From positions 201,008 through 265,007 of the forward strand of contig JANWZD010000001.1 in NCBI GenBank assembly GCA_025054935.1: DNA of 64,000 nucleotides. The letters are read 5' to 3'. Source of the stretch: Dehalococcoidia bacterium. Its GTDB lineage: Bacteria; Chloroflexota; Dehalococcoidia; SpSt-223. The position numbers and the translations under genes were made by a program. The notes beneath the pieces were generated by a model, which was not told the origin of the DNA, ran no database searches, and saw only the letters and a list, made by a program, of their open reading frames with translations. Below are positions 2,848-46,493 of the stretch, one piece after another; the first letter of the stretch is position 1, and each line of letters opens with the position of its first letter.

Positions 2848-3293
2848 TTGAACCTCCCACGGAACAGGATCGTCACTAGTATAAATCTCGAGTCAAGATT
2901 TATAGAGGCGCTGTTGACGCCTCCGCCGCTTTTCCCGACAATCGCCGGTCTCAGCGAGGGCAGCTCGCGTCCGAGAGTGTCGTCGGGCGTCGCTGCCCTC
3001 ATCTTGACTGGTGTTGCTCTCGCGTCGGGGGTGTCGACCGAGCGCTGCTCTCCTTTCTGCTGCTTCTTCTCGGTCACGGATTTCTGCTCAGCCTGAGCCG
3101 GCTTGAGGCGGGTCCCCACGACCAGCTGCTCGAGGTCGTGGCAGCGTTCGGCCTCGCTCTCGTCCTCTTCCTTGACTCGGTCAAGCTCCCGCTGGATGAG
3201 CTGTGCCAAGAGTAGTGCGTTCCTCTGCTTAGGCGAGGGCATGGCACGCTGCTCGTCATCGCCGGGGGCAGCGATCGCCGCGACTGAGATCAT
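2781..3293 (-). CDS. Hypothetical protein (charged/helical; possible small regulator). Doubtful: the 3' end overlaps the DUF4397 start and crosses the AT-rich palindrome
   Basis: ORF-track frame 2781..3311 contains a protein-like stretch (LLAQLIQRELDRVKEEDESEAERCHDLEQL...KSVTEKKQQKGEQRS). First in-frame ATG is at 3293. No convincing SD. Confidence 0.25.
   Translation of the reverse strand: MISVAAIAAPGDDEQRAMPSPKQRNALLLAQLIQRELDRVKEEDESEAERCHDLEQLVVGTRLKPAQAEQKSVTEKKQQKGEQRSVDTPDARATPVKMRAATPDDTLGRELPSLRPAIVGKSGGGVNSASINLDSRFILVTILFRGRFKCDFRSRVAAWSALRLRRSSEA
2881..2903. promoter_or_regulatory. AT-rich inverted repeat ATAAATCT-N7-AGATTTAT (candidate operator) overlapping a TATACT -10 element upstream of the DUF4397 gene
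   Basis: Perfect 8 bp arms read directly from the sequence. Located 34-56 nt upstream of start 2847. Minus-strand reading: ctctataaatcTTGACTcgagatttaTACTAGtgacg. Confidence 0.4.
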
Positions 3294-3593
3294 GAGGACC
3301 GCCCAACTCAAGGGTCTGCCGCTGGGCGCAGTGCTCGCCTCGACTAACCGGGGCGTTCTCCGTGACCCTCAGCGGTCCGGCGGGCGCGCTCCGCTGAAGC
3401 GGGCACCGACGACATCGTCGTACTGCCATCGTCCAGATCCTCATTGCGCTTCTGCATCGGCGCCCGGCTAATCGCGAAAGCGGATGCTGCCGTTGGGATG
3501 CGGCGTGAAGAGCAGGCGCTCGCCTCCCCGCTCGCGGCCGACTTCGCGGGCGCCGACGCCCGATTGCCGGGGAGGGGCGCGTGCGCGCAGCTG

Positions 3594-4058
3594 TCAGGGA
3601 ACGGTGCTCAAACACTCGACCCCAATCGCCTTCATGCCGGCGGCGCCGGCCCACGCCTTAAACAGCTCGCCGGATGGCCAGAGCACTGCCTGTCCTGCCG
3701 CGATCGCTCTCCGGTCGCCGCTCTCGCCCCCAATCCGCACGAAACCGGAGCCGTGGGTCACCACGAAAATGATCGGGAAGCGCGATCGCCGCTCGCCCGT
3801 CTCCCCGTAGGGGTCAAACTCCATTGCCATCACGCTGACCGGCTCATCGAGAATGATCGGTCTGCCGTTGAAGCGAGCTGCCAGCTCCTCGGGCGAGAAC
3901 CGTTCGGCAAACGAGCGCCGGATTTGGATCGCGTTGACGCGCAGCCCGCGGCTTTCTCCGAGCTCGGTCTCGGTCAAAAATGGCGTGAAATCGCGTATCT
4001 CCACCACGCTCTCCCTCCTTCCTCCGCCCAGGGTACGATAAAACCGATGCGTCACCAT
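3594..4058 (-). CDS. Cupin domain-containing protein
   Basis: C-terminal half (FVVTHGSGFVRIGGE...AGQAVLWPSGELF) matches cupin_2 motifs. Start is uncertain; an internal Met (MAMEFDPYGE) would give a shorter cupin-only protein. Confidence 0.55.
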   Translation of the reverse strand: MVTHRFYRTLGGGRRESVVEIRDFTPFLTETELGESRGLRVNAIQIRRSFAERFSPEELAARFNGRPIILDEPVSVMAMEFDPYGETGERRSRFPIIFVVTHGSGFVRIGGESGDRRAIAAGQAVLWPSGELFKAWAGAAGMKAIGVECLSTVP

Positions 4059-4481
4059 CTTGCGGTCTTCGCCCCGCAGCCGCTTGCCGACATTCTCGCC
4101 GGGCGCAAAACGATTGAGAGCCGCTTCGCGCGCGACCGCCGCCCTCCATACGGGCGGGTCGCCCCGGGCGATCTCCTCTGGCTGAAGCAGAGCGGAGGAC
4201 CGCTCGTCGGGGTCGCGACCGCGGCGTGGGTAGAGGAGGTCGCGAACTTGACGCCGGACCGCGTGACCGAGCTGTTCGAGCGCTATCCCGGCATCCTTGC
4301 TGACCCGCCCTACCGCGCCGCAAAGCGGAGCGCGCGCTTCGCCACGATCATCGGGCTGACTGCGGTGCGCCCGCTCGACGCCTGCGTCATCGCCGGGCGC
4401 GGCCGCAGTGGATGGCGGCTCCTTGCCGGTCCTCCGGTCGACTGCTCAGTCTTCCCCTCCCCGCGTCTCCCGCGAAGATGA
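4047..4481 (+). CDS. ASCH domain-containing protein
   Basis: MRHHLAVFAPQPLADILAGRKTIESRFARDRRPPYGRVAPGDLLWLKQSGGPLVGVATAAW... fits the ASCH (ASC-1 homology) beta-barrel family pattern (GxKTIExR). It is the 3' portion of + ORF 3444..4481. Its start overlaps the divergent cupin gene start by 12 nt. Confidence 0.6.
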   Translation: MRHHLAVFAPQPLADILAGRKTIESRFARDRRPPYGRVAPGDLLWLKQSGGPLVGVATAAWVEEVANLTPDRVTELFERYPGILADPPYRAAKRSARFATIIGLTAVRPLDACVIAGRGRSGWRLLAGPPVDCSVFPSPRLPRR

Positions 4482-4914
4482 ACGGCCCAGTCGGCTAGAC
4501 TGGAAACGACGCCGCGACCGTGGGGGGCTTCTGTCGCTTGCTCACCTCCTGCTGATTGGGCTTGGCGGCGCTCTCGGTGCGCTCGCCCGCTTCTTCATTG
4601 CAAATGTGCTCGCGCTCTGGCTGGGGCCGCACTTTCCCTTCGGGACGTTTGCAGTCAACGTCTCGGGGAGCTTTGCTGTCGGCATGCTCCTTGCAGTCAT
4701 CGTGCCCCGCGTCTCGGAGGCGAGCGAACTGCGAGCGTTCCTCGTTGTTGGGTTCTTCGGCGCATACACCACGTTCTCGACGTGGTCCTACGAAACGCTC
4801 GCGCTCTTCCAAGCGGGCCGGTTTGTCGCGGCGGTGGTCAATCTGGGCGGTCAGCTCGCGCTGGGATTGGCCGCCGTCGTGCTCGGGAGCGCGATCGGTC
4901 GCTTGCTGCTGTAG
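4408..4914 (+). CDS. crcB: Fluoride ion channel CrcB/Fluc
   Basis: GGALGALARF...FPFGTFAVNVSGSFAVG...GFFGAYTTFSTWSYE are the CrcB hallmark motifs. No in-frame ATG/GTG/TTG lies between the ASCH stop (4481) and the first TM helix, so the start is probably ATG 4408, overlapping ASCH by 74 nt, or a non-canonical start. Confidence 0.8.
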   Translation: MDGGSLPVLRSTAQSSPPRVSREDERPSRLDWKRRRDRGGLLSLAHLLLIGLGGALGALARFFIANVLALWLGPHFPFGTFAVNVSGSFAVGMLLAVIVPRVSEASELRAFLVVGFFGAYTTFSTWSYETLALFQAGRFVAAVVNLGGQLALGLAAVVLGSAIGRLLL

Positions 4915-5016
4915 CGCCTTTCGGGCGGCGCTGCTCCTCTGCTCAGCGCGAGCAGTTCCGCTCGGCGCACCGCTGAGAACGGGCGCAGCGGCAGAGGAAG
5001 CGCGGGTGACGCTCTG

Positions 5017-5889
5017 TTAGCGCCAGTTGGTAACGAGCAGTTCGCTCACGAGGCCGCGGCGCTCGGGGTCGGAGTTGATCGCCCGGGGAGCGCTCACCGT
5101 CTCGATGCGATAGTCGGCGTAGAGCCAGCGCGTGAAGGGCGTGTCGCTGTTGGAGAGCAGCACGTAGACGCCGCGTTCGGTCAGGCGGTCGACAAGGGCT
5201 TTCAGCCATTTCTGGTCGTTCTCGCTGAAGCCGTGGGCGTTATAGCGAGTAAAGGAGGCGGTGTGCGCTGTCGGCCAGTAGGGCGGGTCAAGGTAGACGA
5301 AATCGCCGGCTTGGGCAGTCTGGACGCTGCGGTCGAAACTTGCCAGCATGATCTCGGCATGCGCTAGGGCTGCGCTTGCGGCAAGCAGCACGTTGGGATC
5401 GTAGAGGCGAAGCGGGCGCCGGTAGCGCCCCATCGGAACGTTGAACTCGCCTCGTCGGTTGACCCGATACAAGCCGTTGTAGCACGTCCGGTTGAGGTAG
5501 AGGAAGCGCGCTGCGCGCGTCTGGCGGTCTAGTGCTGCTGCCGGAAGCGCGCGGACACGGTAGTAGACGTCGCGGTCATACTCGTAGCGGTCGAGTGCCC
5601 GCATCAGCCCGACGGGGTCGTCGCGCACCTCGAGGTAGGCGCTGATCAGATCTTCGTTGATATCGCCGAGCACTGCCCGCGGGGGCCGGAGCGCGAAAAA
5701 GAGCGCGCCGCCGCCGAGAAACGGCTCGAAGTAAACGCCGAAGCGGGGGGGAACCCGCCGCATCAGCTCAGGGAGCAGGCTGGTTTTGCCGCCTGCCCAT
5801 TTCACGAATGGCTGGGCAGCGGGCGCTCCCCTCCCGACGCCGGACGAGGATGACGCCGGGCGAGGCCCGTTCGCTGTTCGCTCAATCAT
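5017..5889 (-). CDS. dam: DNA adenine methyltransferase, Dam/D12 class (N6-adenine, GATC-type family)
   Basis: N-terminal FVKWAGGK (SAM-binding motif of the PF02086 D12 class) and catalytic DPPY (in YLDPPYWP). About 290 aa. ATG 5889 overlaps the stop of the upstream small ORF by 8 nt (ATGATTGA). Confidence 0.85.
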   Translation of the reverse strand: MIERTANGPRPASSSSGVGRGAPAAQPFVKWAGGKTSLLPELMRRVPPRFGVYFEPFLGGGALFFALRPPRAVLGDINEDLISAYLEVRDDPVGLMRALDRYEYDRDVYYRVRALPAAALDRQTRAARFLYLNRTCYNGLYRVNRRGEFNVPMGRYRRPLRLYDPNVLLAASAALAHAEIMLASFDRSVQTAQAGDFVYLDPPYWPTAHTASFTRYNAHGFSENDQKWLKALVDRLTERGVYVLLSNSDTPFTRWLYADYRIETVSAPRAINSDPERRGLVSELLVTNWR

Positions 5890-6334
5890 CGGCTCCGATG
5901 CTGGGGCGGTCGGGAGAGTCGCGCTCGGGGGCGCCGCTCACCGCGGAAGGGAGGCCGAGCCCGGCGGGACGGTGTGCCTCGAGGAGCGAGAAGATGACCG
6001 GGATGGCGTCGGCAGGCTGCGGGAAGAGCCGCTCAACAAACTCGTTGAGGAACCAGGCGCGCAGCCGGGCTTGAATTGGTCCCCGCCGGAACAGACGGGC
6101 GAGACGACGGGCGAGCCCTGTCCGCTCGAACCCTCGGTTGACCTCAACGATAACCCGCAGCCCCTCTCCCCGCAGCTCGAAGTCGCTGCTGCCGGCAGGG
6201 AAGATCATCTCCCAGCGGCCGCGCAGCTGGCGCGCCTCGACCTCCCGTTCTATCGCCCGGACGAGCGCTTCGGCAACGGCCCGCGGCTGATCCGCTCCCG
6301 GCTGCACCCGCTGCCCTCGCGATTGGTCGCTCAT
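5882..6334 (-). CDS. Hypothetical protein (150 aa), translationally coupled between the EF-G paralogue and dam
   Basis: Protein-like composition (…RQLRGRWEMIFPAGSSDFELRGEGLRVIVEVNRGFERTGLARRLARLF…). Starts 3 nt after the EF-G stop. Its stop overlaps the dam start. I recognise no family. Confidence 0.5.
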   Translation of the reverse strand: MSDQSRGQRVQPGADQPRAVAEALVRAIEREVEARQLRGRWEMIFPAGSSDFELRGEGLRVIVEVNRGFERTGLARRLARLFRRGPIQARLRAWFLNEFVERLFPQPADAIPVIFSLLEAHRPAGLGLPSAVSGAPERDSPDRPSIGADD

Positions 6335-8400
6335 GAGACGTTCTCGGCCGCTTTCTTCGCCTCCGCAATGATCCCTTGGGCGAGGTGGGGAGGCACTTCC
6401 TCATAGTGACTGAACGACATGGTGAAGGAGCCGCGCCCTTGGGTAATCGACCGGAGGTCGGTGGCGTAGCGGCGCATCTCGGCGAGCGGCGCCTGCGCCG
6501 TGATGACGCTCACGCCGCCGCTCGTTGTCATCCCTTGGACACGGCCGCGCTTGGTGTTCAGGTCGCTGAGGATATCGCCGAGGAACTGCTCCGGCACCGT
6601 GATCTCGACATTCATGATCGGCTCAATGAGGACGGGGTTTGCCTGCATGACGCCCTTTTTCAGCGCTTGGGCAGCGGCGATTTTGAAGGCGATTTCCGAA
6701 GAGTCAACCGGGTGATAGCTCCCGTCATAGAGGACAACGCGCAGGTCGACGATGGGATAGTGCGCGAGCACCCCTTCCTGAAGCCCCTCTTCGATCCCCT
6801 TCTGCACCGCGGGGAAGAAGTTCTTCGGGACTGTGCCCCCGACGACACGCTCGGCAAACTCAAATCCCTCGCCGCGCGGCTTTGGCTCGAGCTCGATCAT
6901 CACATGACCGTACTGACCATGCCCGCCGGTCTGTTTCTTGTGCTTGTATTCGGCGGTCGCTTTGGTCGTGATCGTCTCTTTGTACGGGACGCGCGGCAGG
7001 GTCGTGGTCAGGTCGACCCCGAACTTGCGCTTCAGCTTCTCGAGCGAGACATCGATGTGCGACTCGCCGAGACCGGACAAGATTGTCTCGTTGGTGTCAG
7101 GGTCGCGGCGCACAGTCAGCGTCGGGTCTTCTTCGACGAGCCGCGCGAGGGCGGTGCCCATCTTGTCGACATCGGCTTTCGACTTGGGATGCACTGCCGC
7201 CGAGAAGACCGGCTTCGGGAACTCGATCGCCGGCAGCAGGATGGGCCGCTCGCGGGTTGTCAGCGTGTCGCCGGTGCCGGTCTCCGTGAGCTTTGTTACT
7301 GCGCCGATATCTCCCGCGGCAAGGGCTTGCACGGCTTCTTGGTGCTTTCCGCGGACGACGTAGACTGTCCCAATCCGCTCTTCTTTGCCTTTATTGGCGT
7401 TGAAGACGTGGCTGTCTGCTTTGAGTGTCCCCGAGTAGACGCGGAAGTAGGTCAGCTTGCCCACAAACTGGTCGGCCGAGGTTTTGAAGACGAGGGCAGC
7501 GAGCGGACCGGCGGGGTCCGGAGCAAGGTCGACCGGCTGACCGTTGACGGTCGCGGGAACGGGACCGCGGTCGGCCGGGGAGGGAGCGAGGTCGATGAGC
7601 GCGTCAAGGAGGAGCGAGCACGCCTTGTTGGCGAGCGCCGACCCGACCAGCACCGGCGTCAGCTTGGCGGCGCGAATCCCGTCTCGCAGTCCCTTGACGA
7701 TCTCTTCGACCGAGAGCTCTTCTCCTTCGAGATACTTGGTCATCAAGTCGTCGTCCTGCTCCGCGACTGCCTCAACGAGCATCTCCCGGTAGGAGGCGAC
7801 CTCATCGGCGAGTTCGCTGGGGATCGGGCCGGCCTCCAGCTTGGGCCCGCTTCTCGCTTCCCGTCGGATCAGGTCGACGACGCCGACGAATCGGTCCTGC
7901 GCCCCGATCGGCGCTTGGATAGGGACGCAGGATGCCCCAAACAGCTCGCGGATCTGGGCGAGCGTCTTCGCGAAATCGGCATTCTCGCGATCGATCTTGT
8001 TGATGAAGAGAAATCGCGGCAGGCGTGCCTCCTGCGCGACTTTCCAATTCAATTCGGTGCCCACCTCAACGCCGCTGACAGCGTCGACGACAAAAACGGC
8101 GGTATCCGCGACGCGGAGGGCTTCTCGGACCTCGCCGACGAAGTCGGCATACCCGGGAGTATCCAGGACATTGATCTTGTGGTCGCGCCACTCACAAGGA
8201 AGAACGGAGAGGCTGATCGAGATCCGGCGTCGCTGTTCATCCGGCTCGAAGTCGGAGACGGTCGTCCCTTCTTCGACTTTGCCAAGCCGCGTGATTGCGC
8301 CGGACGCGAACAGCAGCGCCTCACCGAGGCTCGTCTTGCCGGCGCCGCCATGGCCGACTAGAGCCACATTCCGCAACTGCTCAGTGCGGTAGCTCTTCAT
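6331..8400 (-). CDS. Elongation factor G family translational GTPase (EF-G paralogue; not in a str-operon context)
   Basis: G1 AHVDHGKTT-type motif as LVGHGGAGKTSLGEAL, then DTPGYADF, NKIDR. C-terminal EF-G domains IV/V present (HYPIVDLRVVLYDGSYHPVDSSEIAFKIAA). ATG 8400 is preferred because an SD GGAGGA lies 7 nt upstream; the ORF-track start at 8415 is itself part of that SD. Confidence 0.9.
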   Translation of the reverse strand: MKSYRTEQLRNVALVGHGGAGKTSLGEALLFASGAITRLGKVEEGTTVSDFEPDEQRRRISISLSVLPCEWRDHKINVLDTPGYADFVGEVREALRVADTAVFVVDAVSGVEVGTELNWKVAQEARLPRFLFINKIDRENADFAKTLAQIRELFGASCVPIQAPIGAQDRFVGVVDLIRREARSGPKLEAGPIPSELADEVASYREMLVEAVAEQDDDLMTKYLEGEELSVEEIVKGLRDGIRAAKLTPVLVGSALANKACSLLLDALIDLAPSPADRGPVPATVNGQPVDLAPDPAGPLAALVFKTSADQFVGKLTYFRVYSGTLKADSHVFNANKGKEERIGTVYVVRGKHQEAVQALAAGDIGAVTKLTETGTGDTLTTRERPILLPAIEFPKPVFSAAVHPKSKADVDKMGTALARLVEEDPTLTVRRDPDTNETILSGLGESHIDVSLEKLKRKFGVDLTTTLPRVPYKETITTKATAEYKHKKQTGGHGQYGHVMIELEPKPRGEGFEFAERVVGGTVPKNFFPAVQKGIEEGLQEGVLAHYPIVDLRVVLYDGSYHPVDSSEIAFKIAAAQALKKGVMQANPVLIEPIMNVEITVPEQFLGDILSDLNTKRGRVQGMTTSGGVSVITAQAPLAEMRRYATDLRSITQGRGSFTMSFSHYEEVPPHLAQGIIAEAKKAAENVS

Positions 8401-8511
8401 CCGTCGATCCTCCATGCGAGGTGCATTGCCGGCGCGCCAAAATTGCCAGACGGCAGGATGAGCGGGGGAAGGAGGTCGTGCCGTCGAGGCGCGCCGGATT
8501 AGGTATGCGCT

Positions 8512-8540
8512 ATTCTATCGGAACATCCTTTTCGTCTCAA
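8512..8540 (-). promoter_or_regulatory. sigma70-like promoter TTGAGA - 17 nt - TAGAAT driving the EF-G paralogue operon
   Basis: Minus strand reads ...tTTGAGAcgaaaaggatgttccgaTAGAATagcgca... Predicted TSS is about 8505, giving a roughly 90 nt leader to ATG 8415/8400. Confidence 0.4.
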
Positions 8541-8953
8541 AATCCGAGACCGAAGACGCGACGGATAGACGGGCGCGTCAGGAGGCCGATCGAGAGCAGC
8601 GCGTGCGCCATCGGGATGGGCGCCGGGGGGACAAGCACGCCAGCTGTCAGGAAGCTGACAAGGGTCGGCACTGTCGAAAGGCCGCCGATGAGCAGCGCCA
8701 ACGCGATCGACAGGGTCCTCCCCCACGGCCGGTAGGAAAGCACGCCGGCGCCGGCAACGACAAGCGCGCCGCCGGCAGCAAGGTAGAGAGGGGCGAGCGC
8801 GGGGGGCGGCGCATCGTCTGGCGGAGCGACGAGAGCGAGCGCTCCGCCAATCAGTGAGAGTGTGCCGAGAATGACATGCTCCCAGGCGAGGAGGCGCAGG
8901 AGGAACAGCCAGCCGGGTGGCGGCTGACGATCGGGAGAGAGGTCCGCGCTCAT
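8537..8953 (-). CDS. Hypothetical integral membrane protein (about 138 aa, 4 predicted TM helices)
   Basis: MSADLSPDRQPPPGWLFLLRLLAWEHVILGTLSLIGGALALVAPP...LLIGGLSTVPTLVSFLTAGVLV... is hydrophobic and helical. The ATG at 8953 is internal to ORF-track frame 8537..9136. Confidence 0.5.
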   Translation of the reverse strand: MSADLSPDRQPPPGWLFLLRLLAWEHVILGTLSLIGGALALVAPPDDAPPPALAPLYLAAGGALVVAGAGVLSYRPWGRTLSIALALLIGGLSTVPTLVSFLTAGVLVPPAPIPMAHALLSIGLLTRPSIRRVFGLGF

Positions 8954-9061
8954 ACGGAGAGTGTAGCGACATCCGCCGTCCGGTGTCGCCCCGCTCTCCG
9001 GTATGATTGACGGTGCGCGAGGGCGAGGCGGTGCGCAGCGTCTGGCCAGCGGGAGGGCGCG

Positions 9062-9718
9062 ATGTGTGGTCGCTATACACTCACAGCCGTGTCGCAACTG
9101 CGGGGCCGTTTTTCCCTTGACGACATGCCCGCGCACCTGCCGCAGCGGTTCAATATCGCCCCTTCGGAGCCGGCGCCGATCATCAGCCGGGCAGGCCGCA
9201 ATCAGCTCGAGATACTGCAGTGGGGAATCCAGCCGCGCTGGGCGAAGGAGCGAGCGGGAGGACGGCTGCTCATCAATGCGCGCGCCGAGTCGGTCGCCGA
9301 CTCTCGGCTGTTCGCCCCCGCCCTCCGCGCCCGTCGTGTCATCGTCCCTGCCACCGGCTGGTATGAGTGGAAAGAGACCCCCGCGGGGAAGCAGCCCTAC
9401 TACTTCCGCCGCAAGGACGGCGAGTTGGTAGGGTTTGCGGGCCTAGCGCTTGAGGAGCCTGAGGAGCGGGGCTTCGTCATCATCACTACGGAAGCGCCTC
9501 CGCACCTCCGCCAGGTCCACGATCGGATGCCGGCGGTCCTCCACCGCGAGGATGAGGATCCTTGGCTCGACCGGCACAACCGCGAGCCGGCTGATGTGCT
9601 GCCGCTCCTGCGGCCGTACGACGAGGAGCTGCTCGTCTGGTATCCTGTCTCACGAATGGTTAACCGCAGCGGCTACGACGACCCCCGCATGATCGAGCCC
9701 CTCCCCGCCAGTTCCTAG
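9062..9718 (+). CDS. SOS response-associated peptidase (SRAP/YedK/HMCES family; abasic-site DNA-protein crosslinking)
   Basis: Starts MCGRY with the catalytic Cys2. The rest of the sequence is SRAP-like (WGIQPRW, RLLINARAESV, PATGWYEW, DRMPAVL). Confidence 0.85.
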   Translation: MCGRYTLTAVSQLRGRFSLDDMPAHLPQRFNIAPSEPAPIISRAGRNQLEILQWGIQPRWAKERAGGRLLINARAESVADSRLFAPALRARRVIVPATGWYEWKETPAGKQPYYFRRKDGELVGFAGLALEEPEERGFVIITTEAPPHLRQVHDRMPAVLHREDEDPWLDRHNREPADVLPLLRPYDEELLVWYPVSRMVNRSGYDDPRMIEPLPASS

Positions 9719-37734: not shown

Positions 37735-40700
37735 CTAGTTCTCAATCACGATGCGGACGACTTTTCTGCCTCCTGTATCGACGACATAGAACCTGCCGTC
37801 GTCCGCCGCGACAATCTCAACCGGCAGCGTGAACAGCCCGGGCGCGCCGCCAACCTGCTGGACCCCTTCACGAACGTCGTAGCGCACGAGGCGGCCTCGG
37901 TCCGGGTCGGTGACCACCGGTCGGGAAGCAGCGTCGAGCACGAGGTGAGGTCCGTTCAGCGGGACAGACCAGTTGATCGGCCATTCCGCTTGATAGCGGC
38001 CGCCGGGGTCGAACCATTGGAGACGCTTGTTGCCGGTGTCGAGAACGAGGAGGTCGCCGGTCGGAAGCAGGGCAGCGTCGGTCGGTTCCAGCATCTCGCC
38101 CGGACCGGCGCCCTTTCTCCCGCCGTAGATGGTCAGCAGCTGGCCGTCGGAAGCGAACTTGAGCACGCGGTTTTGCCCCGTGTCGGAGATATAGAGATTG
38201 TCCGCCTCATCGATCGATAACCCGCGCGGCTTGTAGAAGTCGGACCGCGCTAACGGCAGCCGCCCCACAAACCGGCCGTCATCAAGGCGGTATTCGTGGA
38301 TCCCGGCTGTTGTCGCATCAAGGATGAACACTCGCCCCGATCGGGTGATGGCGATCCCGGTCGGCTCTTGGAGGCCGCCTGCTGTCGGCTCTGGACCCGC
38401 ATACGCGCGGATAAACTGCCCCTGGGGATCGAAGACGAGCACTCGCCGCGCTCCTCCATCAAGCACGTGCAGAGCGCCGGTAGGGTCAAGAGCAGCAGCG
38501 CGCGGCTCCTCAAGCCGTCCCTCAGGGGAAAGTCCGTAGGTCATCTCGACTCGAAGCGAGAGCGGCGGGCCGCTTGCGAAGCGCACGACGCCGCTCGGGA
38601 CGCGGACGGCGGCCTCTCGGGGAGCCGCAGGCACGGTCGGGCTCGGGGGAAGATCGCTCCCTTGGGGAGGCAGCAGCACCGCTGACGGGATCAGCTCGCG
38701 TCGTCGCCCTGGCGGCGTCCAGTAGAGGTAGATGCGCGAATAGGGATCGCGGTCGACGAACTTCAGCTGGAGATCGTGCAGCCCTGCCTCGAGCGGCACA
38801 TCTACCTCGTGGAGTTCGCTGCCGCGACGATTGTCGATAATCAGCCGGCCATTGAGAAAGAGTTGGGAAGTGCTGATCTGCTCTGTCCCAAAGCGGTAGA
38901 CACCTGGCTGGTCGATCCGGAGCGTGCCGCGCCACTCCACGCTGTAGGGGCGAGGAAGGGGCAGAATGTGGAAGTACATGCCGATCTGCGGATCGATCCG
39001 GAGAAGGGCGGGCTCTCCTGCCCACTCGGCGTTGGGATAATACGCGCCGAGCAGCCCTGTCGCCGCAACGGGAGGGAGATAGAAGAGGTTGGAGGGGATC
39101 GGGCTGAGCGTGCCGCCCGGCGGCTCCCAGGCCAATCGGACTGGTTGGCCTGGGCGGTCGGCACGAGCTCGGAGCAGGAGAGCGTGGTTGCCGGCTGCGA
39201 GGGTCAGCCGCGCTGCCTGGCCTCCGGTGAGCACGCGCGCGCCGTTGAGGAACAGCTCGGCACTGCTCGGTCCTTCAAGGAGCAGCCGGTAGCTGCCGTG
39301 CCGGGGAACGTGGAGCGTGCTCCGCCACTCCGCAAGCACCGGAACCGCGAGGCCGAGCGTGGCCGGGTCGATGTTGATCTCGGTCTCGCGGCGGCTGAGA
39401 TCGGGCCGCTCGCGTTCAGTTCCGTGCGCGAAGTAGCGCGCCTCAACGCCTTGGATGGCGACGATATCGGCCGGCGCGAGCTGAACAGCGTAGACGAGCG
39501 GAGGTCCGCCGAAGGGCGGACGCAGCTCCTCGACTTGGGCGCTGGGATAATAGAGCCGAAGCTGGCTGAACGCCGCCTGCTCGCTCGGGTCGAGGAAGAA
39601 GAAGGTCCGCGGAGCAACGGCGCGCACCGGTACGTCTGTTGCGGCGTTGAACAGGGCGCCTTCGGGCGCCTTCGGGGCGAGGAACCGGATTGTAGGCGGT
39701 CGGCCGGAGAAGAACTGGCTGAGGTAGACTGCATCGTTCGGAGAGAGCTCGCGAAGCCGCAGGGCAACGAGCGTTTCGGCCGCGGAATGGGCCGCAAAGG
39801 CGGCGAAGTCGTTTGCCCAGGCGACGAAGTAGCGATGATGGTTGACGACGGCGACGAAGAGGAGGGCGCTGCCGAGAGCGATGGTGCCCCCCGCTCGCCA
39901 AGCTCGCGACCATGCCGACGGGCCATGCCACCGCGCGGGGAGACGCGGAAACGTTCCAACCAGCAGCGCTCCGAGCGAGAGCGGGGTGCGGCTGCTGCGC
40001 GCGGCGGCCGCCGGGTTGCCGTACGTCCCCCAGGGGCTGCGCACCCAGCGGTCCCAGAGCGCGCCGAGCGGCAGCGCCGCAAAGATGAGCGTCGGCGGCA
40101 GCGCGGTCGATGCGCGCAGCGACTGCGGAGCTTCAAAGTTGAGGGAGAGGATCCCTCCAAGCAGCATCGTTCCCCACCAGATGATGAGGGTCGGCCCAGT
40201 CGGGCGGCGAAGCAGTCCCAACGTCAGCCCCACGCCGAGAACGAAGAGCGGCGCCAGAAGCGGGTCGAGCATCGGCCGGCCGGGAAGGTTATGGCGGCCA
40301 TTGCGGTCCCCCGCCACGTTAAACATCAGCAGGTGCTTCTCGATGTTGTCGAGCAGCGGGCCCCAGTGACCGGCTCGCTCCACTTCGGGCATCACGCTTG
40401 CGACCCCAAGCCTACGGTTGAACTCCTCGGGGAAGCGGACTGCAAACCATGCCAACGGCCCGGCCGCAATCAGCGCCGCGAGGGCGAGGAGGAGTGCGCC
40501 TTGGCTGATCGATGGCCAGAGCGATCGCCGCCAGAGCGCAGCCGCGAGGAGCAGAACGGCGAGGGTTACCGGGAAGATCCGTGACGGGAAGTAGAACTGG
40601 AGGTCGAACCCGACAAGAAGGCCGGCGATAACGAAGTCGCGCGGCCGGCGGTCTTGCAGTCCCCGCACGAGGAAAAACAGGACGAGCGTCTCGAGGGTAA

Positions 40701-41550
40701 TGCTGAAGATTGCGGTGCTGGTCGGAAAGCGGCTTAGGGTGACGTGCCAGCTGGAAACGGCGAGAAACCACGCCGCAATGAGCGCGATCCGCGGCGAGCC
40801 GAAGAGCCGGCGGGTGAGGAGGTAGATCGCGGGGATCCCCACGGTTCCCGCAATCGCTGTGGTCACCCGCAAGGCAAGAGGAGTCTCTCCGAAGACGAGC
40901 ATCGCGAGGGCGGCAAGGTAGATATTCGCCGCCGGGTTTTGGTTTTCGACGTAAAAAATCGGCCGGTATGTCGGCGAGGCGAGGATCTGCTGGGCGCCAA
41001 GGCCGACGACCGCCTCGTCGTACCACACTCCGAAGGGGAGCGTCGCTAGTTCTGCGGTACGGAACCAGAGCCCGACTGCGGTCGCGAGGGCGAGGATGGC
41101 CAGTTCAGCTCGGCCGATTGGCGGGCTGACCGGTGTCCGCGTGCCGGCCGGCAGCAGGAAGGCTGCGCCGAGTGTCATCGCAACAGCGGCGAGGTAGAGG
41201 AGCCAGGCGAGGTTTGGATTGCGGTCGCTTGAAAACAGCCAGAGGGAGCCTCCAAGGAAGAGGAAGGCAGCCGCGCCGGCAAAAGCTGACGGAAGCGCGG
41301 CCGTCAGCCGCGGCCAACGGCCTGTGCTCTCCCAGCCGTCAGGACCGGTGGCGGGCAGCGCGTACTGCGCCAGCGCGATTGCAATAAGGAACGCCGCCCC
41401 AGCAGCGATGAGGTCCGGCGGCTGGCTCAGGTAGCGAGCATTGGCGGCGACGGCGAGGACAATGGCGACGATCCCAGCGAGGAGGCGGCGCGGCTGCGAC
41501 GGGAAGAGGAGCCGGGTCGCCGAGCGGGAGGAGGGCGCCGCTGGTGCCAT
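37735..41550 (-). CDS. Large GT-C/GT39-like polytopic membrane glycosyltransferase homologue fused to tandem PA14 domains and a C-terminal NHL-repeat beta-propeller (1271 aa)
   Basis: N-terminal about 550 aa with more than 10 TM helices and a PMT/ArnT-like loop (GVWYDEAVVG). Middle: two PA14 signatures (GLLGAYYPNAEWAGEP...YRFGTEQISTSQLFLNGRLIID...LYW and an earlier degenerate copy). C-terminus: NHL repeats (YISDTGQNRVLKF, LVLDTGNKRLQWF, FYVVDTGGRKVVRI). Confidence 0.8.
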   Translation of the reverse strand: MAPAAPSSRSATRLLFPSQPRRLLAGIVAIVLAVAANARYLSQPPDLIAAGAAFLIAIALAQYALPATGPDGWESTGRWPRLTAALPSAFAGAAAFLFLGGSLWLFSSDRNPNLAWLLYLAAVAMTLGAAFLLPAGTRTPVSPPIGRAELAILALATAVGLWFRTAELATLPFGVWYDEAVVGLGAQQILASPTYRPIFYVENQNPAANIYLAALAMLVFGETPLALRVTTAIAGTVGIPAIYLLTRRLFGSPRIALIAAWFLAVSSWHVTLSRFPTSTAIFSITLETLVLFFLVRGLQDRRPRDFVIAGLLVGFDLQFYFPSRIFPVTLAVLLLAAALWRRSLWPSISQGALLLALAALIAAGPLAWFAVRFPEEFNRRLGVASVMPEVERAGHWGPLLDNIEKHLLMFNVAGDRNGRHNLPGRPMLDPLLAPLFVLGVGLTLGLLRRPTGPTLIIWWGTMLLGGILSLNFEAPQSLRASTALPPTLIFAALPLGALWDRWVRSPWGTYGNPAAAARSSRTPLSLGALLVGTFPRLPARWHGPSAWSRAWRAGGTIALGSALLFVAVVNHHRYFVAWANDFAAFAAHSAAETLVALRLRELSPNDAVYLSQFFSGRPPTIRFLAPKAPEGALFNAATDVPVRAVAPRTFFFLDPSEQAAFSQLRLYYPSAQVEELRPPFGGPPLVYAVQLAPADIVAIQGVEARYFAHGTERERPDLSRRETEINIDPATLGLAVPVLAEWRSTLHVPRHGSYRLLLEGPSSAELFLNGARVLTGGQAARLTLAAGNHALLLRARADRPGQPVRLAWEPPGGTLSPIPSNLFYLPPVAATGLLGAYYPNAEWAGEPALLRIDPQIGMYFHILPLPRPYSVEWRGTLRIDQPGVYRFGTEQISTSQLFLNGRLIIDNRRGSELHEVDVPLEAGLHDLQLKFVDRDPYSRIYLYWTPPGRRRELIPSAVLLPPQGSDLPPSPTVPAAPREAAVRVPSGVVRFASGPPLSLRVEMTYGLSPEGRLEEPRAAALDPTGALHVLDGGARRVLVFDPQGQFIRAYAGPEPTAGGLQEPTGIAITRSGRVFILDATTAGIHEYRLDDGRFVGRLPLARSDFYKPRGLSIDEADNLYISDTGQNRVLKFASDGQLLTIYGGRKGAGPGEMLEPTDAALLPTGDLLVLDTGNKRLQWFDPGGRYQAEWPINWSVPLNGPHLVLDAASRPVVTDPDRGRLVRYDVREGVQQVGGAPGLFTLPVEIVAADDGRFYVVDTGGRKVVRIVIEN

Positions 41551-41555
41551 CGCGG

Positions 41556-44500
41556 TTAGGGAAGCGGGTCAAATCGTTGGACGCGAGCGTTATTGCTGTC
41601 AACGACAAAGAGCGCGCCGTCCGGCCCGACGGCGACGCCAATGGGGAGATTGAAGCTCCCGGGCTCGGCGCCGAAGCGGCCCACGACATTGAGAAGCTGC
41701 CCTTCCGGCGAGAACCGGAGCAGCCGGTGGTTCTCGGGGTCGGAGACGATGACATTGCCGCTCGGGTCGACCGCGAGATACGGCTTGTTCAGAATGCCGG
41801 TGCTCTCCCAGCCGCGGATCGGGGTCGCCCCCAGGGGGCGCAGGCTCGCGTCGAACCGCTGGATCCGTCGGTTCCAAGTGTCGGCGACGAAGATCGTGCC
41901 ATCGGGAGCAACGGCAATCCCGACCGGTTCTTGGAACTGCCCGAGCATGGCGCCGGCGCCGCCGAAGGCGCCGAGAAACTGCCCGTCCGGCCGGAAGCGC
42001 TGTATCCGCTTGTTGCCGGTGTCGGTGACGAGCAGCGACCCGTCATCGAGGAAGGCGATCGCGCGCGGCCCGTAGAACCGGCCGGGATTTCCCGTCACCT
42101 GCCCGACCGACTCGCCGAACTCGCCAAACTTCCGCAGAAAGCGGAGATCGGCGGTGAACTGCTGGAGGCGATGGTTCCAGGTATCAGCGACCCAAACGGT
42201 GCCGTCAGGCGCGATGGCGATCCCCCACGGCTCGGTGAATTCACCATCAAGCGTTCCCCGGCGGCCGACCTGAGCGACCACGCGGCCGGAGGGATCGAAC
42301 TTCTGCACCCGATGGTTACCCGTATCGACGACGTAGATGAAGCCGTCTCCATCGACGGCGATGCCGCGGGGCTCGAGCAGTTGTCCTGCGCCGCTGCCGC
42401 GAGCGCCGAAGGCTGCGCTCGGCTGAAGAGGGGTAAGCGCGAGAGCGTATTCATCCGGTTGCGCCGGCCGCGCCGGGCCGGCGGTCAGCGGCTCGCCGGC
42501 GAGAAGGGAGCTCTTGACGAAGAAATAGCCGTCTTCCGAGCCGAGCGGCTTGCCCAGGTCGCGGTTGAAAAAGTACTGCCACAGCCGTTCTAGCCCGGTG
42601 GGACTGAGCGACGCCGCGACGGCATCGCTGAACCCAAACGCGCTGTTCGGGCGTCCCGGCTGAGCGGCCAAGGGGGAGCCCATCGCGGCCACCCACTCGA
42701 TAGCGCTCTTGTAATCCTCGGGGAACCACCAGCGATGACGGTAGCGCTGCCCGGGGGTGTAGTCGCTCAAATACGGGCGCATCCGCTCCACATTGTTGGC
42801 GTGGATAAGCACCACCTGCCCGGCGGGCGGAGCAGCAGCACCGCTGTAGGAGGGGTAGTCGACGTTCGGGTAGTGGCGGAGATACCACGCCCAGGGCCAA
42901 GTAAAGCCGCTGGTGCTGTCGACGGAAATGCGCAGCTCTTTTCCGCCTGTAGCCCGGAGAGAGAGCCGTTCGATTTCGCGGTACAGCCGAGGGATATCCG
43001 GGGAGGTTTGGGTGTAGATCAGCATCTCGGTGGCGATATCGCCGTGTTTGTAGGTGACAGTCCACGCAGCGCGCATCGTGAGGACGAGCAGGATCAGGAC
43101 GATCGCGCCGCTTGCGGCGCGGACGATCCCCGAGCCCCCGAACGGTGCCCCAACCTGAACAGCGGCCCCGACAAGGAGCAGCGCGATCCCGATCAGGGCG
43201 AGCGCTTGGCCGTTCCATCCCGGTGCGAGGTCGGCGGCGGCTTGAATCAGGCCGGCGGCCCCTGCCGCAAGAACGACCGCTGCCGCGATGAAGAGCGCAA
43301 CCACCGCGGCGGCCCGCCACGCCACGTCCGAGTTCCACCGCACCCCCTCAAGCCACCAGCCTGCTGAGCGACCCGCAAGCACGATCAGCGGCAGCGCGAC
43401 GTGGACAAGCAGCCACGGCATCTTCTCGCCTGCCCAGCTGTACGCAACGAGCGAGCCGACAAACCAGTAGAAGAGAAACGCAACGAATGGTGTCAGCCTC
43501 TCCCGGTGGCGAACGAGGGAGGCAATCCCTGCGCCGGCAAGGGCAAGCGGAAGGAATTCATAGAGCGGCAGCAGCAGGAGGTAGTAGTACCACGGCTGGT
43601 TGCCGCGCTGCACCCCATGCTGGTCGAGCCAGTAGGCGAGACTGCCCCAGACCCCAGACCCGATCCCCGGCAGATTGGTAAAGAAGGTGCTGTACAGGAG
43701 CACGAACACTGTCCAGAAGAGCGCCGCATATCCCGGCCAGACGGTTCGGTTCCACCACAAGCCGACGGCGGTCGAGATGACAAAACAGATGCCAGCGATC
43801 ACGAACTGCGAGAAGATCGCCCGCGTGGTCACCCAGGGCCCAAAAGCGATGACAGTCGGGTCTGTCGAGACGAGGGGTGTCAGCTTCGCAAAAGCGGCGA
43901 GCAGGGGCAGAGTGAGCGTGCCGAGCAGGATCAGGACGCCGAAGATCCTGTTGTCCCGCACCTCCTCCAAGCGAGGAAGGCGCCCTTTCCCAGCGAGATC
44001 CCACAGCCAATAGGCGGTGAAAAAGCTGCCGAACACCGCAACGGTAATGTAGTGGGTCTCCTTTGCCGAAAAGCCGAGCGCCATCATCAGCGTCCCGAGA
44101 TAGAGCCAGCGAACTTCCTTGCGCTCGATGTACCGCCAGGCCGCGAGTGCCAAGAGGAGGGTGAAGACCGCCATCAGGATGTCGTTGCGGGAAAAGCGGC
44201 TGTAGTACAGCATCGTCGGCGAGAAGGCGAGCAGCACCGCCGTGACGAGCGCGCCGCCGCGGCCGAGGAGGTCGCGCATGAAGAAGGGGAGGAGAACGAG
44301 GACGGTCCCAAAGGTCGCGTAGAGGAGGCGAGCCGTGACGTCGTTGTCGCCAAACAGAAAGTAGATCAGGGCGTTTACGTGAAACTGAAAGGGGCCGTGC
44401 ATCATCGGGTCGTGCTGGTAGCCCCGCCCGGCGTAGAGATACCAGCTATAGAGCACGTGCAAGCTCTCATCGTGATGCATCGCGCGCGTTCCGAGATCCC

Positions 44501-44660
44501 AGAACCGCATGATGGCTGCGACAAGGGTCAGCCCAGCGTAGGCCAGCGTCTCCCAAGTGACGCTGACGACGCTGAACACCCGGTCAACAGCGTCGCCGCG
44601 AGCGGAGAGCGAGCGGAGAGGGAGAAGAGCTCGAGTCATGCGCCTGCTCCTCGCTGGCAC
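41556..44660 (-). CDS. GT-C fold membrane protein (DE motif HHDESLH; TIGR03663-like by my recollection) with a C-terminal six-bladed NHL-repeat beta-propeller (1034 aa)
   Basis: N-terminal roughly 650 aa hydrophobic, with an extracytoplasmic first-loop DE motif typical of GT39/GT83. C-terminal NHL repeats (YVVDTGNHRVQKF, WVADTWNHRLQQF, LVTDTGNKRIQRF, FVADTWNRRIQRF, IVSDPENHRLLRF, FVVDSNNARVQRF). 5 nt gap to the downstream gene. Confidence 0.8.
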   Translation of the reverse strand: MPARSRRMTRALLPLRSLSARGDAVDRVFSVVSVTWETLAYAGLTLVAAIMRFWDLGTRAMHHDESLHVLYSWYLYAGRGYQHDPMMHGPFQFHVNALIYFLFGDNDVTARLLYATFGTVLVLLPFFMRDLLGRGGALVTAVLLAFSPTMLYYSRFSRNDILMAVFTLLLALAAWRYIERKEVRWLYLGTLMMALGFSAKETHYITVAVFGSFFTAYWLWDLAGKGRLPRLEEVRDNRIFGVLILLGTLTLPLLAAFAKLTPLVSTDPTVIAFGPWVTTRAIFSQFVIAGICFVISTAVGLWWNRTVWPGYAALFWTVFVLLYSTFFTNLPGIGSGVWGSLAYWLDQHGVQRGNQPWYYYLLLLPLYEFLPLALAGAGIASLVRHRERLTPFVAFLFYWFVGSLVAYSWAGEKMPWLLVHVALPLIVLAGRSAGWWLEGVRWNSDVAWRAAAVVALFIAAAVVLAAGAAGLIQAAADLAPGWNGQALALIGIALLLVGAAVQVGAPFGGSGIVRAASGAIVLILLVLTMRAAWTVTYKHGDIATEMLIYTQTSPDIPRLYREIERLSLRATGGKELRISVDSTSGFTWPWAWYLRHYPNVDYPSYSGAAAPPAGQVVLIHANNVERMRPYLSDYTPGQRYRHRWWFPEDYKSAIEWVAAMGSPLAAQPGRPNSAFGFSDAVAASLSPTGLERLWQYFFNRDLGKPLGSEDGYFFVKSSLLAGEPLTAGPARPAQPDEYALALTPLQPSAAFGARGSGAGQLLEPRGIAVDGDGFIYVVDTGNHRVQKFDPSGRVVAQVGRRGTLDGEFTEPWGIAIAPDGTVWVADTWNHRLQQFTADLRFLRKFGEFGESVGQVTGNPGRFYGPRAIAFLDDGSLLVTDTGNKRIQRFRPDGQFLGAFGGAGAMLGQFQEPVGIAVAPDGTIFVADTWNRRIQRFDASLRPLGATPIRGWESTGILNKPYLAVDPSGNVIVSDPENHRLLRFSPEGQLLNVVGRFGAEPGSFNLPIGVAVGPDGALFVVDSNNARVQRFDPLP

Positions 44661-44696
44661 GGGTGCGGCCAGCTCGCAGAAGAAGTCGAAGCGGTG

Positions 44697-46493
44697 TCAT
44701 CTCAGTATGACCAGAAGAGCTTCGCGGCGAAATCCCGTTTCGCCGGCCGTGCGCCAGACATACCAGCGCCAGAAGGAACGCGCCCCTTCTGGCGGACCGT
44801 AACTTCCAAGAGCGTAGACGCTGCGTATCCCGCTTGCTGCCGTCTCCGGGAGAGACGTGCCGACCGGCACAATCGCTGCATCGAGCCCTCCCGCGAGGTC
44901 AGCGCGCATGCGCATGCCCGGCTGATCGCGGAGGAGCCAGGCAAACGGAACCCGCAGCTCCGGGGCGACACCGTAGGCGATGATGCCTCCCCGCGCGGCG
45001 CGCAGTTCCGCAATCTGCTCGGGAAAGATCTGCGCGGCGGGGCCGGGAACGTCTGGCAGCACCCACTCCCCGGCGCTCGGTCGGGCGTTCAGCGCGAACG
45101 AGGCGTGGATCGACCCCATCAGCAGGAGCGCCGCTCCGGCAAGTGCCGTCACCGGCAGGGCGTTCCGGCCGAGGGAAGCAACGACGAGCACGCTGTAGCC
45201 GCCGGCGAGGGCAAGACTGAGAAAAACGGCCAGCCACTGCAGCGGCGTTCCCCCATCGCTGCGTGTCAGCACCGCCGATTGGATATAGGCGTAGACCAAG
45301 AGGGGGATTGCGCCGAGCAGCGCTGCTCCTCGCGCGAGGTCGTCGCGTCGCAGCGCGCAAAGTACATCCGCAAGCGCGGTGGCGGCGAGGAGGGCAAGGG
45401 GGAACGCGATCGCGGCGAGCGGTCCGACGAGGCGCTGTCCGCCGAGCACCGCGACGGCAAGCGCGACACCGCTCCAAAGAGCGAGAAAAGCGAGCGCCTG
45501 CCGGCTCCGCGGCTCGCGCGCTCTCCCGCTCAGCAGCCACAGGATGCCCGCAGTCCCCGCGCCGAGCGTGAGCGGGTCGTAGCTCACCAACGCCAGGGGC
45601 GGCAGGAGCGCGCTGCCGCCGGTCGTAAATTCGCGGACCCAGCCGTTGACCGCGGGCAGCGCGAGCCCGCTCGGGTCGAGGAAGAACCGGGTCGAGACGA
45701 GAAGGAACAACAGGAGCGCCGCAAGCACTGCACCGCCGAGCGAGGGGGTCTGCCCCCTCTCAGTGCGCCACCGCGTCAGGAGCGCCGTGAGCGGCGTCGA
45801 CGTCCCGAGCAGCCGGGCGATGACGAGAGCGACGGCAGCCGCGAGGAGGAGGGTGACCGCGCGAGGACCGCTCGTCAGCAGCATGGCGAAGGCGAGAATG
45901 GCCGTCGCGGCCCAGCCGGCCTGGCCATCCCGCTCGAAGCGCAGGAGACCAAGCAGCGCCACCACCGCCGCCAGAAGAGCGAGCGCGTCCGGTTCCCCGC
46001 GGCGCGAGATGGCGAGCGAGAAGGGACTGACGGCGAGCAAAAACGCGGCCAGAAGGGCGGCAAGCCGCCCGAGGAACGGTCGGAACGCGGGCATCAGGGC
46101 GACTGTCGCCGTTCCAGCGACGACCGACGGAAAGCGGGCAGCGAGATCTGAGGGAGTGGCAAGGAAGAAAACCAGCGCAGTGAGCAGGTCGGCGAGCGGC
46201 GCGCTGCTCCCCGCGGGGCGGCCGAGAGTGAGGTCAAGCGCTGCAAGCGCGGTCGCGCTTTCACCGAGCGAGAGCGGGTCGCTCGCGGCGAGCCCAAGCC
46301 GCAGTCCGGCAGCGACGACAATCGCCACGCCGTAGAGGAGCCATTCGAGCGGGACCGCAACCGCGGGGCGGTTGAGCATCGCCTCGAGAGCGGGAGGCGC
46401 GCTGCCGCTCGCGCTGCGGACGGAGGGCGACAGCTCTGCCACCGCGCTAGCGGGCTCGGAAAATCGTTGCGCTGCCATTCTGAAATGCCACAT
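44697..46493 (-). CDS. GT39-like polytopic membrane protein (putative glycosyltransferase), start uncertain
   Basis: Multiple TM helices and a D..E-containing first loop. ORF-track frame begins at TTG 46559, overlapping the YYY gene by 113 nt. ATG 46493 or 46478 avoids the overlap. Confidence 0.6.
   Translation of the reverse strand: MWHFRMAAQRFSEPASAVAELSPSVRSASGSAPPALEAMLNRPAVAVPLEWLLYGVAIVVAAGLRLGLAASDPLSLGESATALAALDLTLGRPAGSSAPLADLLTALVFFLATPSDLAARFPSVVAGTATVALMPAFRPFLGRLAALLAAFLLAVSPFSLAISRRGEPDALALLAAVVALLGLLRFERDGQAGWAATAILAFAMLLTSGPRAVTLLLAAAVALVIARLLGTSTPLTALLTRWRTERGQTPSLGGAVLAALLLFLLVSTRFFLDPSGLALPAVNGWVREFTTGGSALLPPLALVSYDPLTLGAGTAGILWLLSGRAREPRSRQALAFLALWSGVALAVAVLGGQRLVGPLAAIAFPLALLAATALADVLCALRRDDLARGAALLGAIPLLVYAYIQSAVLTRSDGGTPLQWLAVFLSLALAGGYSVLVVASLGRNALPVTALAGAALLLMGSIHASFALNARPSAGEWVLPDVPGPAAQIFPEQIAELRAARGGIIAYGVAPELRVPFAWLLRDQPGMRMRADLAGGLDAAIVPVGTSLPETAASGIRSVYALGSYGPPEGARSFWRWYVWRTAGETGFRREALLVILR

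Follow-up and report, generated by a model that had tools for sequence, protein, structure and literature searches.

Why should a gene for a DNA adenine methyltransferase, with no restriction enzyme at its side, stand at the end of a row of genes that opens with a translation factor? The question is raised by a 64-kb stretch of chromosomal DNA (65% G+C) from a Chloroflexota/Dehalococcoidia metagenome-assembled genome (MAG); this whole stretch is referred to below as the window. Three genes on its minus strand encode a paralogue of elongation factor G (EF-G), a small protein and a Dam-family methyltransferase, and a preliminary description of the DNA had suggested either epigenetic regulation or a compact restriction-modification (R-M)-like module riding on a housekeeping promoter. 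Our analysis indicates that the locus is probably a lineage-specific three-gene operon that grew behind an EF-G of the EFG II type, with a solitary GATC methylase placed on the EFG II promoter. The small protein is most likely neither a nuclease nor a component of an R-M system.

The list of open reading frames (ORFs) and a direct reading of the sequence place the three genes where they had first been described, co-oriented and tightly packed. FVKWAGGK and DPPY are both present in the dam ORF, and both of the reported overlaps exist in the sequence: that of an ATG of the small ORF with the EF-G stop (ATGA, 6334/6331) and that of the small-gene stop with the dam start (ATGATTGA, 5889/5882). From promoter to methylase, with lengths in nucleotides (nt) or amino acids (aa), the features of the unit are:

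8512..8540, minus strand: sigma-70-like promoter, TTGAGA-17-TAGAAT, with 10 of 12 consensus positions, conserved among lineages
8401..8511, minus strand: leader of about 105 nt, from an alignment and consensus fold of five lineages
6331..8400, minus strand: EF-G paralogue of the EFG II type, 689 aa, assigned from Pfam domains, NF009381 and subfamily residues; the ORF is open to an ATG at 8415
6314..6318, minus strand: GAGGG ribosome-binding site, 6 nt before the small-gene GTG, from sequence reading; homologous to the GGAGGG-GTG of the related locus L001
5882..6307, minus strand: small clade-restricted protein, probably of 141 aa (150 aa from the ATG at 6334), backed by 16 homologues and by substitution rates
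5882..5889, minus strand: ATGATTGA, the Dam start codon overlapping the small-gene stop, a conserved 8-nt overlap
5017..5889, minus strand: Dam-family N6-adenine DNA methyltransferase of 290 aa, predicted to recognise GATC and lacking an adjoining restriction endonuclease (REase), from PF02086 and TIGR00571

Distribution of the three genes

Genome, metagenome and read-assembly collections supplied 23 loci for comparison, amounting to about 10 lineages. In all of them the small gene comes immediately after EF-G (23/23 loci, 10/10 lineages). A Dam gene follows the small gene in 7 of the 10 lineages, overlapping it in six and standing after a 70-nt gap in L017, and is absent from that place in the remaining three (L005-7, L008 and L028). 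These three belong to a deep branch. In L005-7 and L008 the small protein is about 50% identical to that of the window and the next gene is convergent and hexapeptide-repeat-like; in L028 (60% identical) the 125 nt left after the small-gene stop hold no Dam start. The outgroup, a same-type EF-G (P0145, in L029) that at 66% identity is as close as the deep-branch copies, is monocistronic: it ends in a terminator hairpin followed by a convergent TldD/PmbA gene, with no small ORF and no Dam. Given this lone outgroup EF-G and a deep branch without Dam, the EF-G paralogue would first have stood by itself, to be joined by the small gene and later by dam, and the comparison identifies the small gene and Dam as clade-specific additions.

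The small gene and its start

Spurious long ORFs are abundant in the window's high-GC DNA, and the coding status of the small ORF was therefore tested directly. A search of 5.8 billion proteins returned 16 homologues, all unnamed, at 50-100% identity; the window's own product is 100% identical to NCBI MCS6800494/MDW8253674, as is the Dam to MCS6800493/MDW8253675. In pairwise codon alignments from eight lineages, the ratio of nonsynonymous to synonymous substitution rates (dN/dS) was 0.12-0.28, with dS at or past saturation (>1), and the differences fell mostly at third positions (for example, 24/16/76 by codon position). The third-position excess and the low dN/dS are those of a protein under purifying selection, and on these comparative grounds we regard the small ORF as a real gene and not as a high-GC artefact.

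To place its start, the junction between EF-G and the small ORF was read in four other lineages (L001, L009, L014 and L017). In the first three of these the frame of the small gene opens at or after the EF-G stop, which makes a start before that stop impossible; in L017 it opens before the stop. The best candidate start is a GTG that lies 13 (L001), 9 (L009), 13 (L014) or 11 (L017) codons into the open frame, 24-39 nt past the EF-G stop, or 6 nt past it in L017. The L001 candidate is preceded by GGAGGG, and its equivalent in the window is the GTG at 6307 behind the GAGGG at 6318..6314. Judging from these junctions, the small gene probably starts at GTG 6307 (141 aa) rather than at ATG 6334. 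The ATGA overlap at the EF-G stop is specific to the window, being made up of a last EF-G codon TCA (Ser) and the TGA stop; together with the downstream GTG start, this makes translational coupling of EF-G to the small gene doubtful.

The methyltransferase and its overlapping start codon

The methylase matches PF02086 (1e-56, 193 bits; cut-off 22) and TIGR00571 (1.6e-81, 273.9 bits; cut-off 114.85) well above threshold. Its score against NF008152, the equivalog model for E. coli-type Dam, is 188.7 bits and thus below the cut-off of 441, which makes it a member of the Dam family and not an orthologue of the enterobacterial enzyme. The characteristic motifs are all present: FVKWAGGK, an S-adenosylmethionine (AdoMet) loop EPFLGGGALFF, and YLDPPYW, whose DPPY is encoded at 5278..5289. 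Among relatives of solved structure, M.DpnII-1 scores best (221 bits), followed by E. coli Dam (EcoDam; 160 bits). In a phmmer alignment the equivalents of the EcoDam residues K9, Y119, N120, L122, R124, P134 and Y138 are all identical, and they are kept in the orthologues; these residues contact GATC in EcoDam (PMC4417163). The scores and the retained contacts uphold the earlier assignment to the Dam class, and the target is predicted to be GATC or a GATC-containing site.

The 8-nt overlap between the Dam ATG and the small-gene stop occurs in six lineages (the window, L001, L009, L003/L013, L014/L015 and L025), where it reads GATGATTGA or GATGACTGA. The AT of the Dam ATG is supplied by the codon for Asp149 of the small protein. 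Where the overlap exists this codon is GAT (6/6 lineages), and where no Dam overlaps the gene it is GAC (4/4 lineages); GAT accounts for only 27% of Asp codons. The conserved overlapping ATG and the bias towards GAT support a 290-aa Dam, and its coupling to the small gene, over the 262-aa Dam called by NCBI from V29. The proposal that dam is translationally coupled to the small gene through this overlap is in this way strengthened by its conservation. The locus would be a clean natural case of a methylase start codon made by a synonymous change, GAC to GAT, when dam joined an existing operon. As a separate observation, a start at V29 cuts off the conserved Phe of FxKWAGGK (5805..5889, minus strand).

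EFG II hallmarks of the EF-G paralogue

The EF-G ORF (6331..8415) matches all five EF-G domain families of Pfam. Its conserved start is the ATG at 8400, behind a conserved GGAGGA, which gives 689 aa as in all orthologues; the in-frame ATG further upstream, at 8415, is GTG in relatives. The protein carries Gly16 and Leu25, at the type I positions, and a G1 motif that starts with Gly (VGHGGAGKTSL; GHGGAGKT), which are published marks of EFG II (PMC3150367, PMC12172202). Its G2 motif (residues 58-62) is RRISI instead of RGITI, and RRISV, RHGSI or RRGSI in relatives; the EFG II criteria have G2 relaxed to xxxSx, with a Chloroflexi pattern of r/kxxSI (PMC3150367). A gene scan of the locus found none of rpsL, rpsG and tuf as neighbours of EF-G, placing the gene outside the str operon. 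The hallmark residues (Gly16, Leu25, RRISI) and this location bear out the view that the gene encodes a paralogue. Where a genome has just one EF-G, that one is always EFG I (PMC3150367), and a second, EFG I copy is therefore expected in the genome of the window.

The switch II motif is DTPGY (EF-G residues 80-84; 8149..8163, minus strand) in the window, in all relatives and in the outgroup. Canonical translational GTPases have the catalytic His where DTPGY has Tyr.

Promoter and leader

The unit has a promoter of its own. The sigma-70-like match TTGAGA-17-TAGAAT lies upstream of EF-G at 8540..8512, two such sites being present in the region against 0.4 expected, and both hexamers are conserved in L001, L009, L014, L013 and L008. 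On the minus strand, no terminator-like site was found between the three genes. In the consensus fold of five lineages the leader forms a hairpin, CCUC-loop-GGAG, that spans the Shine-Dalgarno site, and a 5-bp AUCCG/CGGAU pairing across the EF-G start codon, the pairs being invariant and so giving no covariation support. An Rfam scan of the whole window, leader included, found no RNA family. The leader could be a translational control element. In relatives the promoter and leader lie at L001 5777..5894, L009 4044..4161, L013 3797..3926 and L014 3763..3894.

Between an SRAP gene and the EF-G promoter lies a reading frame for a hypothetical protein of at most 199 aa (8537..9136, minus strand), which has no family match and, by eye, shows hydrophobic, membrane-like segments. 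L001 and L009 have an unnamed ORF in the same place, likened to it by position alone.

Fold and conservation of the small protein

Searches with the small protein of Pfam, NCBIfam, PADLOC and PHROGs gave no match. A hidden Markov model profile search of 1.84 billion cluster representatives returned only its own family and two weak multi-stretch matches in giant proteins, and a profile search of PDB sequences returned only a designed protein (E = 0.0011). An origin by duplication of an EF-G or Dam domain was considered and rejected, as alignment of the family profiles with hhalign gave a probability of 0.1%.

An AlphaFold2 model built from the 16-sequence alignment has an overall predicted local distance difference test score (pLDDT) of 77. 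Its core (residues ~15-120) is confident, with a block pLDDT of 81-96, and is predicted to run in the order alpha-beta-beta-beta-alpha-beta-beta-alpha. The acidic 30-residue tail (…SGAPELDSPDRPSIGADD) is predicted to be disordered (pLDDT <50), and it is more conserved than the core (mean majority frequency 0.82 vs 0.71); the hairpin RLRAWFLNEFVER is the only segment above the tail in conservation (0.91). A tail that is disordered in the model and yet conserved suggests a docking peptide.

The preliminary description had proposed that this protein could be an unconventional nuclease, or else a specificity factor. The predicted core does bear a superficial likeness to the alpha-beta-beta-beta-alpha-beta core of PD-(D/E)xK enzymes, and two acidic positions on adjacent strands, E53 and E/D64, are conserved. 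Neither the structure prediction nor the sequence carried the idea further: Foldseek searches of PDB and BFVD gave no significant match (none with E <0.001) and listed no nuclease, and no PD-(D/E)xK or HNH signature is present. At the PD-(D/E)xK positions D51 varies (D, A or S), and E/D64 is followed by x-N or x-G (E-V-N; in the deep branch E/D-V/I-G) and never by K or Q. As for HNH, the protein has no Cys, and its sole conserved His, H121, falls where the chain runs into the disordered tail.

A second Dam with a putative restriction partner

No recognisable REase lies beside dam, whose neighbours are the small gene and a convergent CrcB gene, and none was found among the other large ORFs scanned, in agreement with what had first been noted of the locus. 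GATC sites are not depleted in the window either (466 observed vs 486 expected under a Markov model, a ratio of 0.96, which is a weak criterion); under-representation of GATC had been put forward as a check on restriction, and none was seen.

The same genome encodes a second Dam, P0031 (MCS6800593), which is 57% identical to the Dam of the window, lies 100 protein accessions (about 100 genes) away on a contig of equal length (649,107 bp) and keeps the same GATC-contact residues. The stop of its gene overlaps the gene of a 440-aa DUF6996/DUF6997/DUF7226/AAA_assoc_C protein that matches the PADLOC model REase_II over its full length (1.9e-32). From these matches, the second Dam and the 440-aa protein probably make up a type II R-M pair based on three DUF families of Pfam; literature searches on DUF6996/6997/7226 found nothing. 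Both Dams are likewise present in the STL-CHL33 MAG, at L014 and L022. The second Dam/440-aa pair is syntenic in two MAGs, at L019 8001..10171 and L022 5001..7144.

Among the closest non-orthologous Dams, that of L021 has another Dam and an AlwI-type REase as neighbours, those of L019 and L022 lie beside the DUF6996/6997 REase candidate, and that of L024 follows an unrelated gene. The Dam-Dam-AlwI arrangement shows that close relatives of the window Dam serve type IIS systems with GATC-containing sites. The L021 arrangement occupies 2975..6542 of an unrelated metagenomic contig, where two adjoining Dam-class methylases are followed by the AlwI-family REase. In a neighbour-joining tree of the 120 best matches, calculated without support values, the Dams of the operon adjoin the second-Dam (R-M) group.

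It had been foreseen that a distant cognate REase elsewhere in the genome would tell against an orphan methylase. The window Dam does stand without an REase at its own locus, and the second Dam with its REase_II-like partner, about 100 genes off, is a plausible form of such a distant system. The 'orphan' status of the window Dam is weakened by this paralogous Dam-REase pair.

Other features of the window

The CrcB fluoride-channel gene that converges on dam lies at 4408..4914 on the plus strand; at Rfam gathering thresholds the window showed no fluoride riboswitch. A series of very large genes at 37735..48786 on the minus strand, whose products have PMT_2 glycosyltransferase, NHL-repeat, PA14 and DUF2298 domains, coincides with a strongly positive AT skew (0.16-0.32 between 39 and 49 kb).

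Discussion

We propose that the unit was assembled stepwise. An EFG II-type EF-G standing alone with its terminator, as in related Chloroflexota, would be the starting state. In one narrow clade of Dehalococcoidia the small gene would have been placed directly after EF-G, and in a sub-clade a Dam-family gene would then have been placed after the small gene, with its ATG overlapping the small-gene stop. Transcription of the whole trio would proceed from the conserved promoter and leader ahead of EF-G, and translation of Dam would depend on coupling to the small gene. The window Dam itself would be the solitary paralogue of the methyltransferase of a distant type II R-M pair, and may either back up protection against that REase or provide housekeeping or epigenetic GATC methylation.

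Several points weigh against this account. NCBI starts its 262-aa Dam at GTG V29, which leaves a 77-nt gap behind the small gene and no coupling. The best NCBIfam model for the EF-G is NF009381, 'elongation factor G' (975 bits), the EF-G2 model NF009377 scores 679 bits and thus below its cut-off of 890, and the protein scores higher against Thermus thermophilus EF-G (731 bits) than against EF-G2 (511 bits). Co-transcription is argued from how closely the genes are spaced, from a promoter that matches the consensus and from a lack of terminators. The grouping of the operon Dams with the R-M methylases comes from a tree that lacks supports, and the link of the window Dam to the distant REase candidate is a conjecture.

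The only constant partner of the small gene is EFG II. The likeliest role for the small protein, as far as gene order and conservation can tell, is that of an accessory that would contact EFG II or the ribosome via its acidic C-terminal peptide. Two points speak against a partnership with EFG II: the idea is founded on gene order alone, and hundreds of EFG II orthologues, equally close, do without the small protein (at least hundreds of other Chloroflexota EF-Gs share 60-66% identity, yet the small family has 16 members). In its fullest form the idea would make the small protein the first dedicated EFG II partner, with an Arg-rich core and an acidic peptide (GAPELDSPDRPSIGADD) that dock onto EFG II or the ribosome, and with the coupled Dam tying GATC methylation to the same signal; this we think unlikely. 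A literature search turned up no EFG II with a dedicated downstream partner or methylase.

Alternatively, the small protein may act on the side of the DNA, regulating dam expression or reading methylated or hemimethylated GATC, its adjacency to EF-G being incidental. The coupling to dam conserved in six lineages would fit such a role, as would the conserved residues R40, R60, R90, R92 and R102 together with the acidic tail, a combination found in some nucleic-acid binders; the top fold matches, weak as they are (E 0.14 or worse), are PUR-alpha repeats, which bind nucleic acids, and the R-M Dam paralogue could yet be present in lineages without an adjoining Dam. However, it is the linkage to EF-G that is universal and the linkage to Dam that is not, the protein shows neither a helix-turn-helix nor any fold known from methyl-DNA readers, and the fold matches are not significant. 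We consider this alternative quite unlikely.

It is also conceivable that the operon serves to couple translation state to DNA methylation: EFG II and Dam would be deliberately co-regulated, and GATC methylation would follow the stress or slow growth under which EFG II is employed. The trio stays a block while its flanks change (L003/L013 vs the window and L001), and does so over distances at which synonymous sites are saturated (dS >1); the conserved, structured leader likewise suggests regulated expression. However, the linkage is limited to one small clade, with no Dam at this place in the deep branch and the outgroup, no known mechanism joins the one activity to the other, and overlap in itself makes genes difficult to part by rearrangement, whatever they do. 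Purposeful co-regulation is an improbable explanation of the locus, and we strongly doubt it.

Finally, a compact R-M-like module, in which the small protein would be the restriction nuclease or specificity subunit of the coupled Dam, is barely credible: the stop/start overlap is one seen in many R-M operons, but the small gene occurs without Dam in 3/10 lineages and an REase without its methylase is not tolerated, the residues of the nuclease signatures are variable or missing, no fold, PADLOC, Pfam or NCBIfam match links the protein to a nuclease, GATC is not depleted in the window and, at ~138 aa, the protein would be smaller than the known type II enzymes.

The value of these results is mainly corrective: a lineage-specific operon behind EFG II hides no miniature R-M system, and the label 'orphan' needs care where a paralogous Dam-REase pair lies elsewhere in the genome. 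They also define a new 16-member family that is always tied to an EFG II gene, and since the biology of EFG II is unclear, any specific partner would be useful. The lead most worth following is a possible binding of the small protein to EFG II.

Comparison with known systems

The EF-G resembles the EFG II subfamily, for example T. thermophilus EF-G2 (PDB 1WDT/2DY1), in Gly16, Leu25, the Gly-initial G1, the Ser in G2 and its location outside str. It differs from T. thermophilus EF-G2 in scoring higher with canonical EF-G and in falling under the NCBIfam EF-G2 cut-off.

The D12-class domain of M.DpnII-1 (DpnM, PDB 2DPM) and of E. coli Dam (PDB 2G1P), both GATC-specific alpha-class methyltransferases, aligns over its full length to the window Dam, which shares with them FxKWAGGK, an FxGxG-type AdoMet loop, DPPY and the GATC-contact residues. 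Unlike these two enzymes, the window Dam has an N-terminal extension of about 25 aa, which is variable among orthologues. The genetic setting also differs: DpnM belongs to an R-M operon with the DpnII endonuclease, whereas the window dam has no adjoining REase, and E. coli dam sits in an aroK-aroB-damX-dam operon and not after a translation factor.

In lying just upstream of a methylase gene and overlapping it, the small gene is reminiscent of the small ORFs of R-M operons, such as those for controller (C) proteins. Unlike controller proteins, its product has no helix-turn-helix and no Pfam or PADLOC match, and the gene is methylase-free in three lineages.

The closest parallels to the methylase are solitary methyltransferases derived from R-M systems, and R-M systems with two Dams. 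In common with these, the genome of the window combines a nuclease-less Dam with an REase-coupled paralogue, the two being grouped in the neighbour-joining tree. The DpnII and MboI R-M systems are each served by two Dam-class methylases; in the window's genome the two methylases lie about 100 genes apart and not in one operon. In all of these respects the unit stays within known kinds of system.

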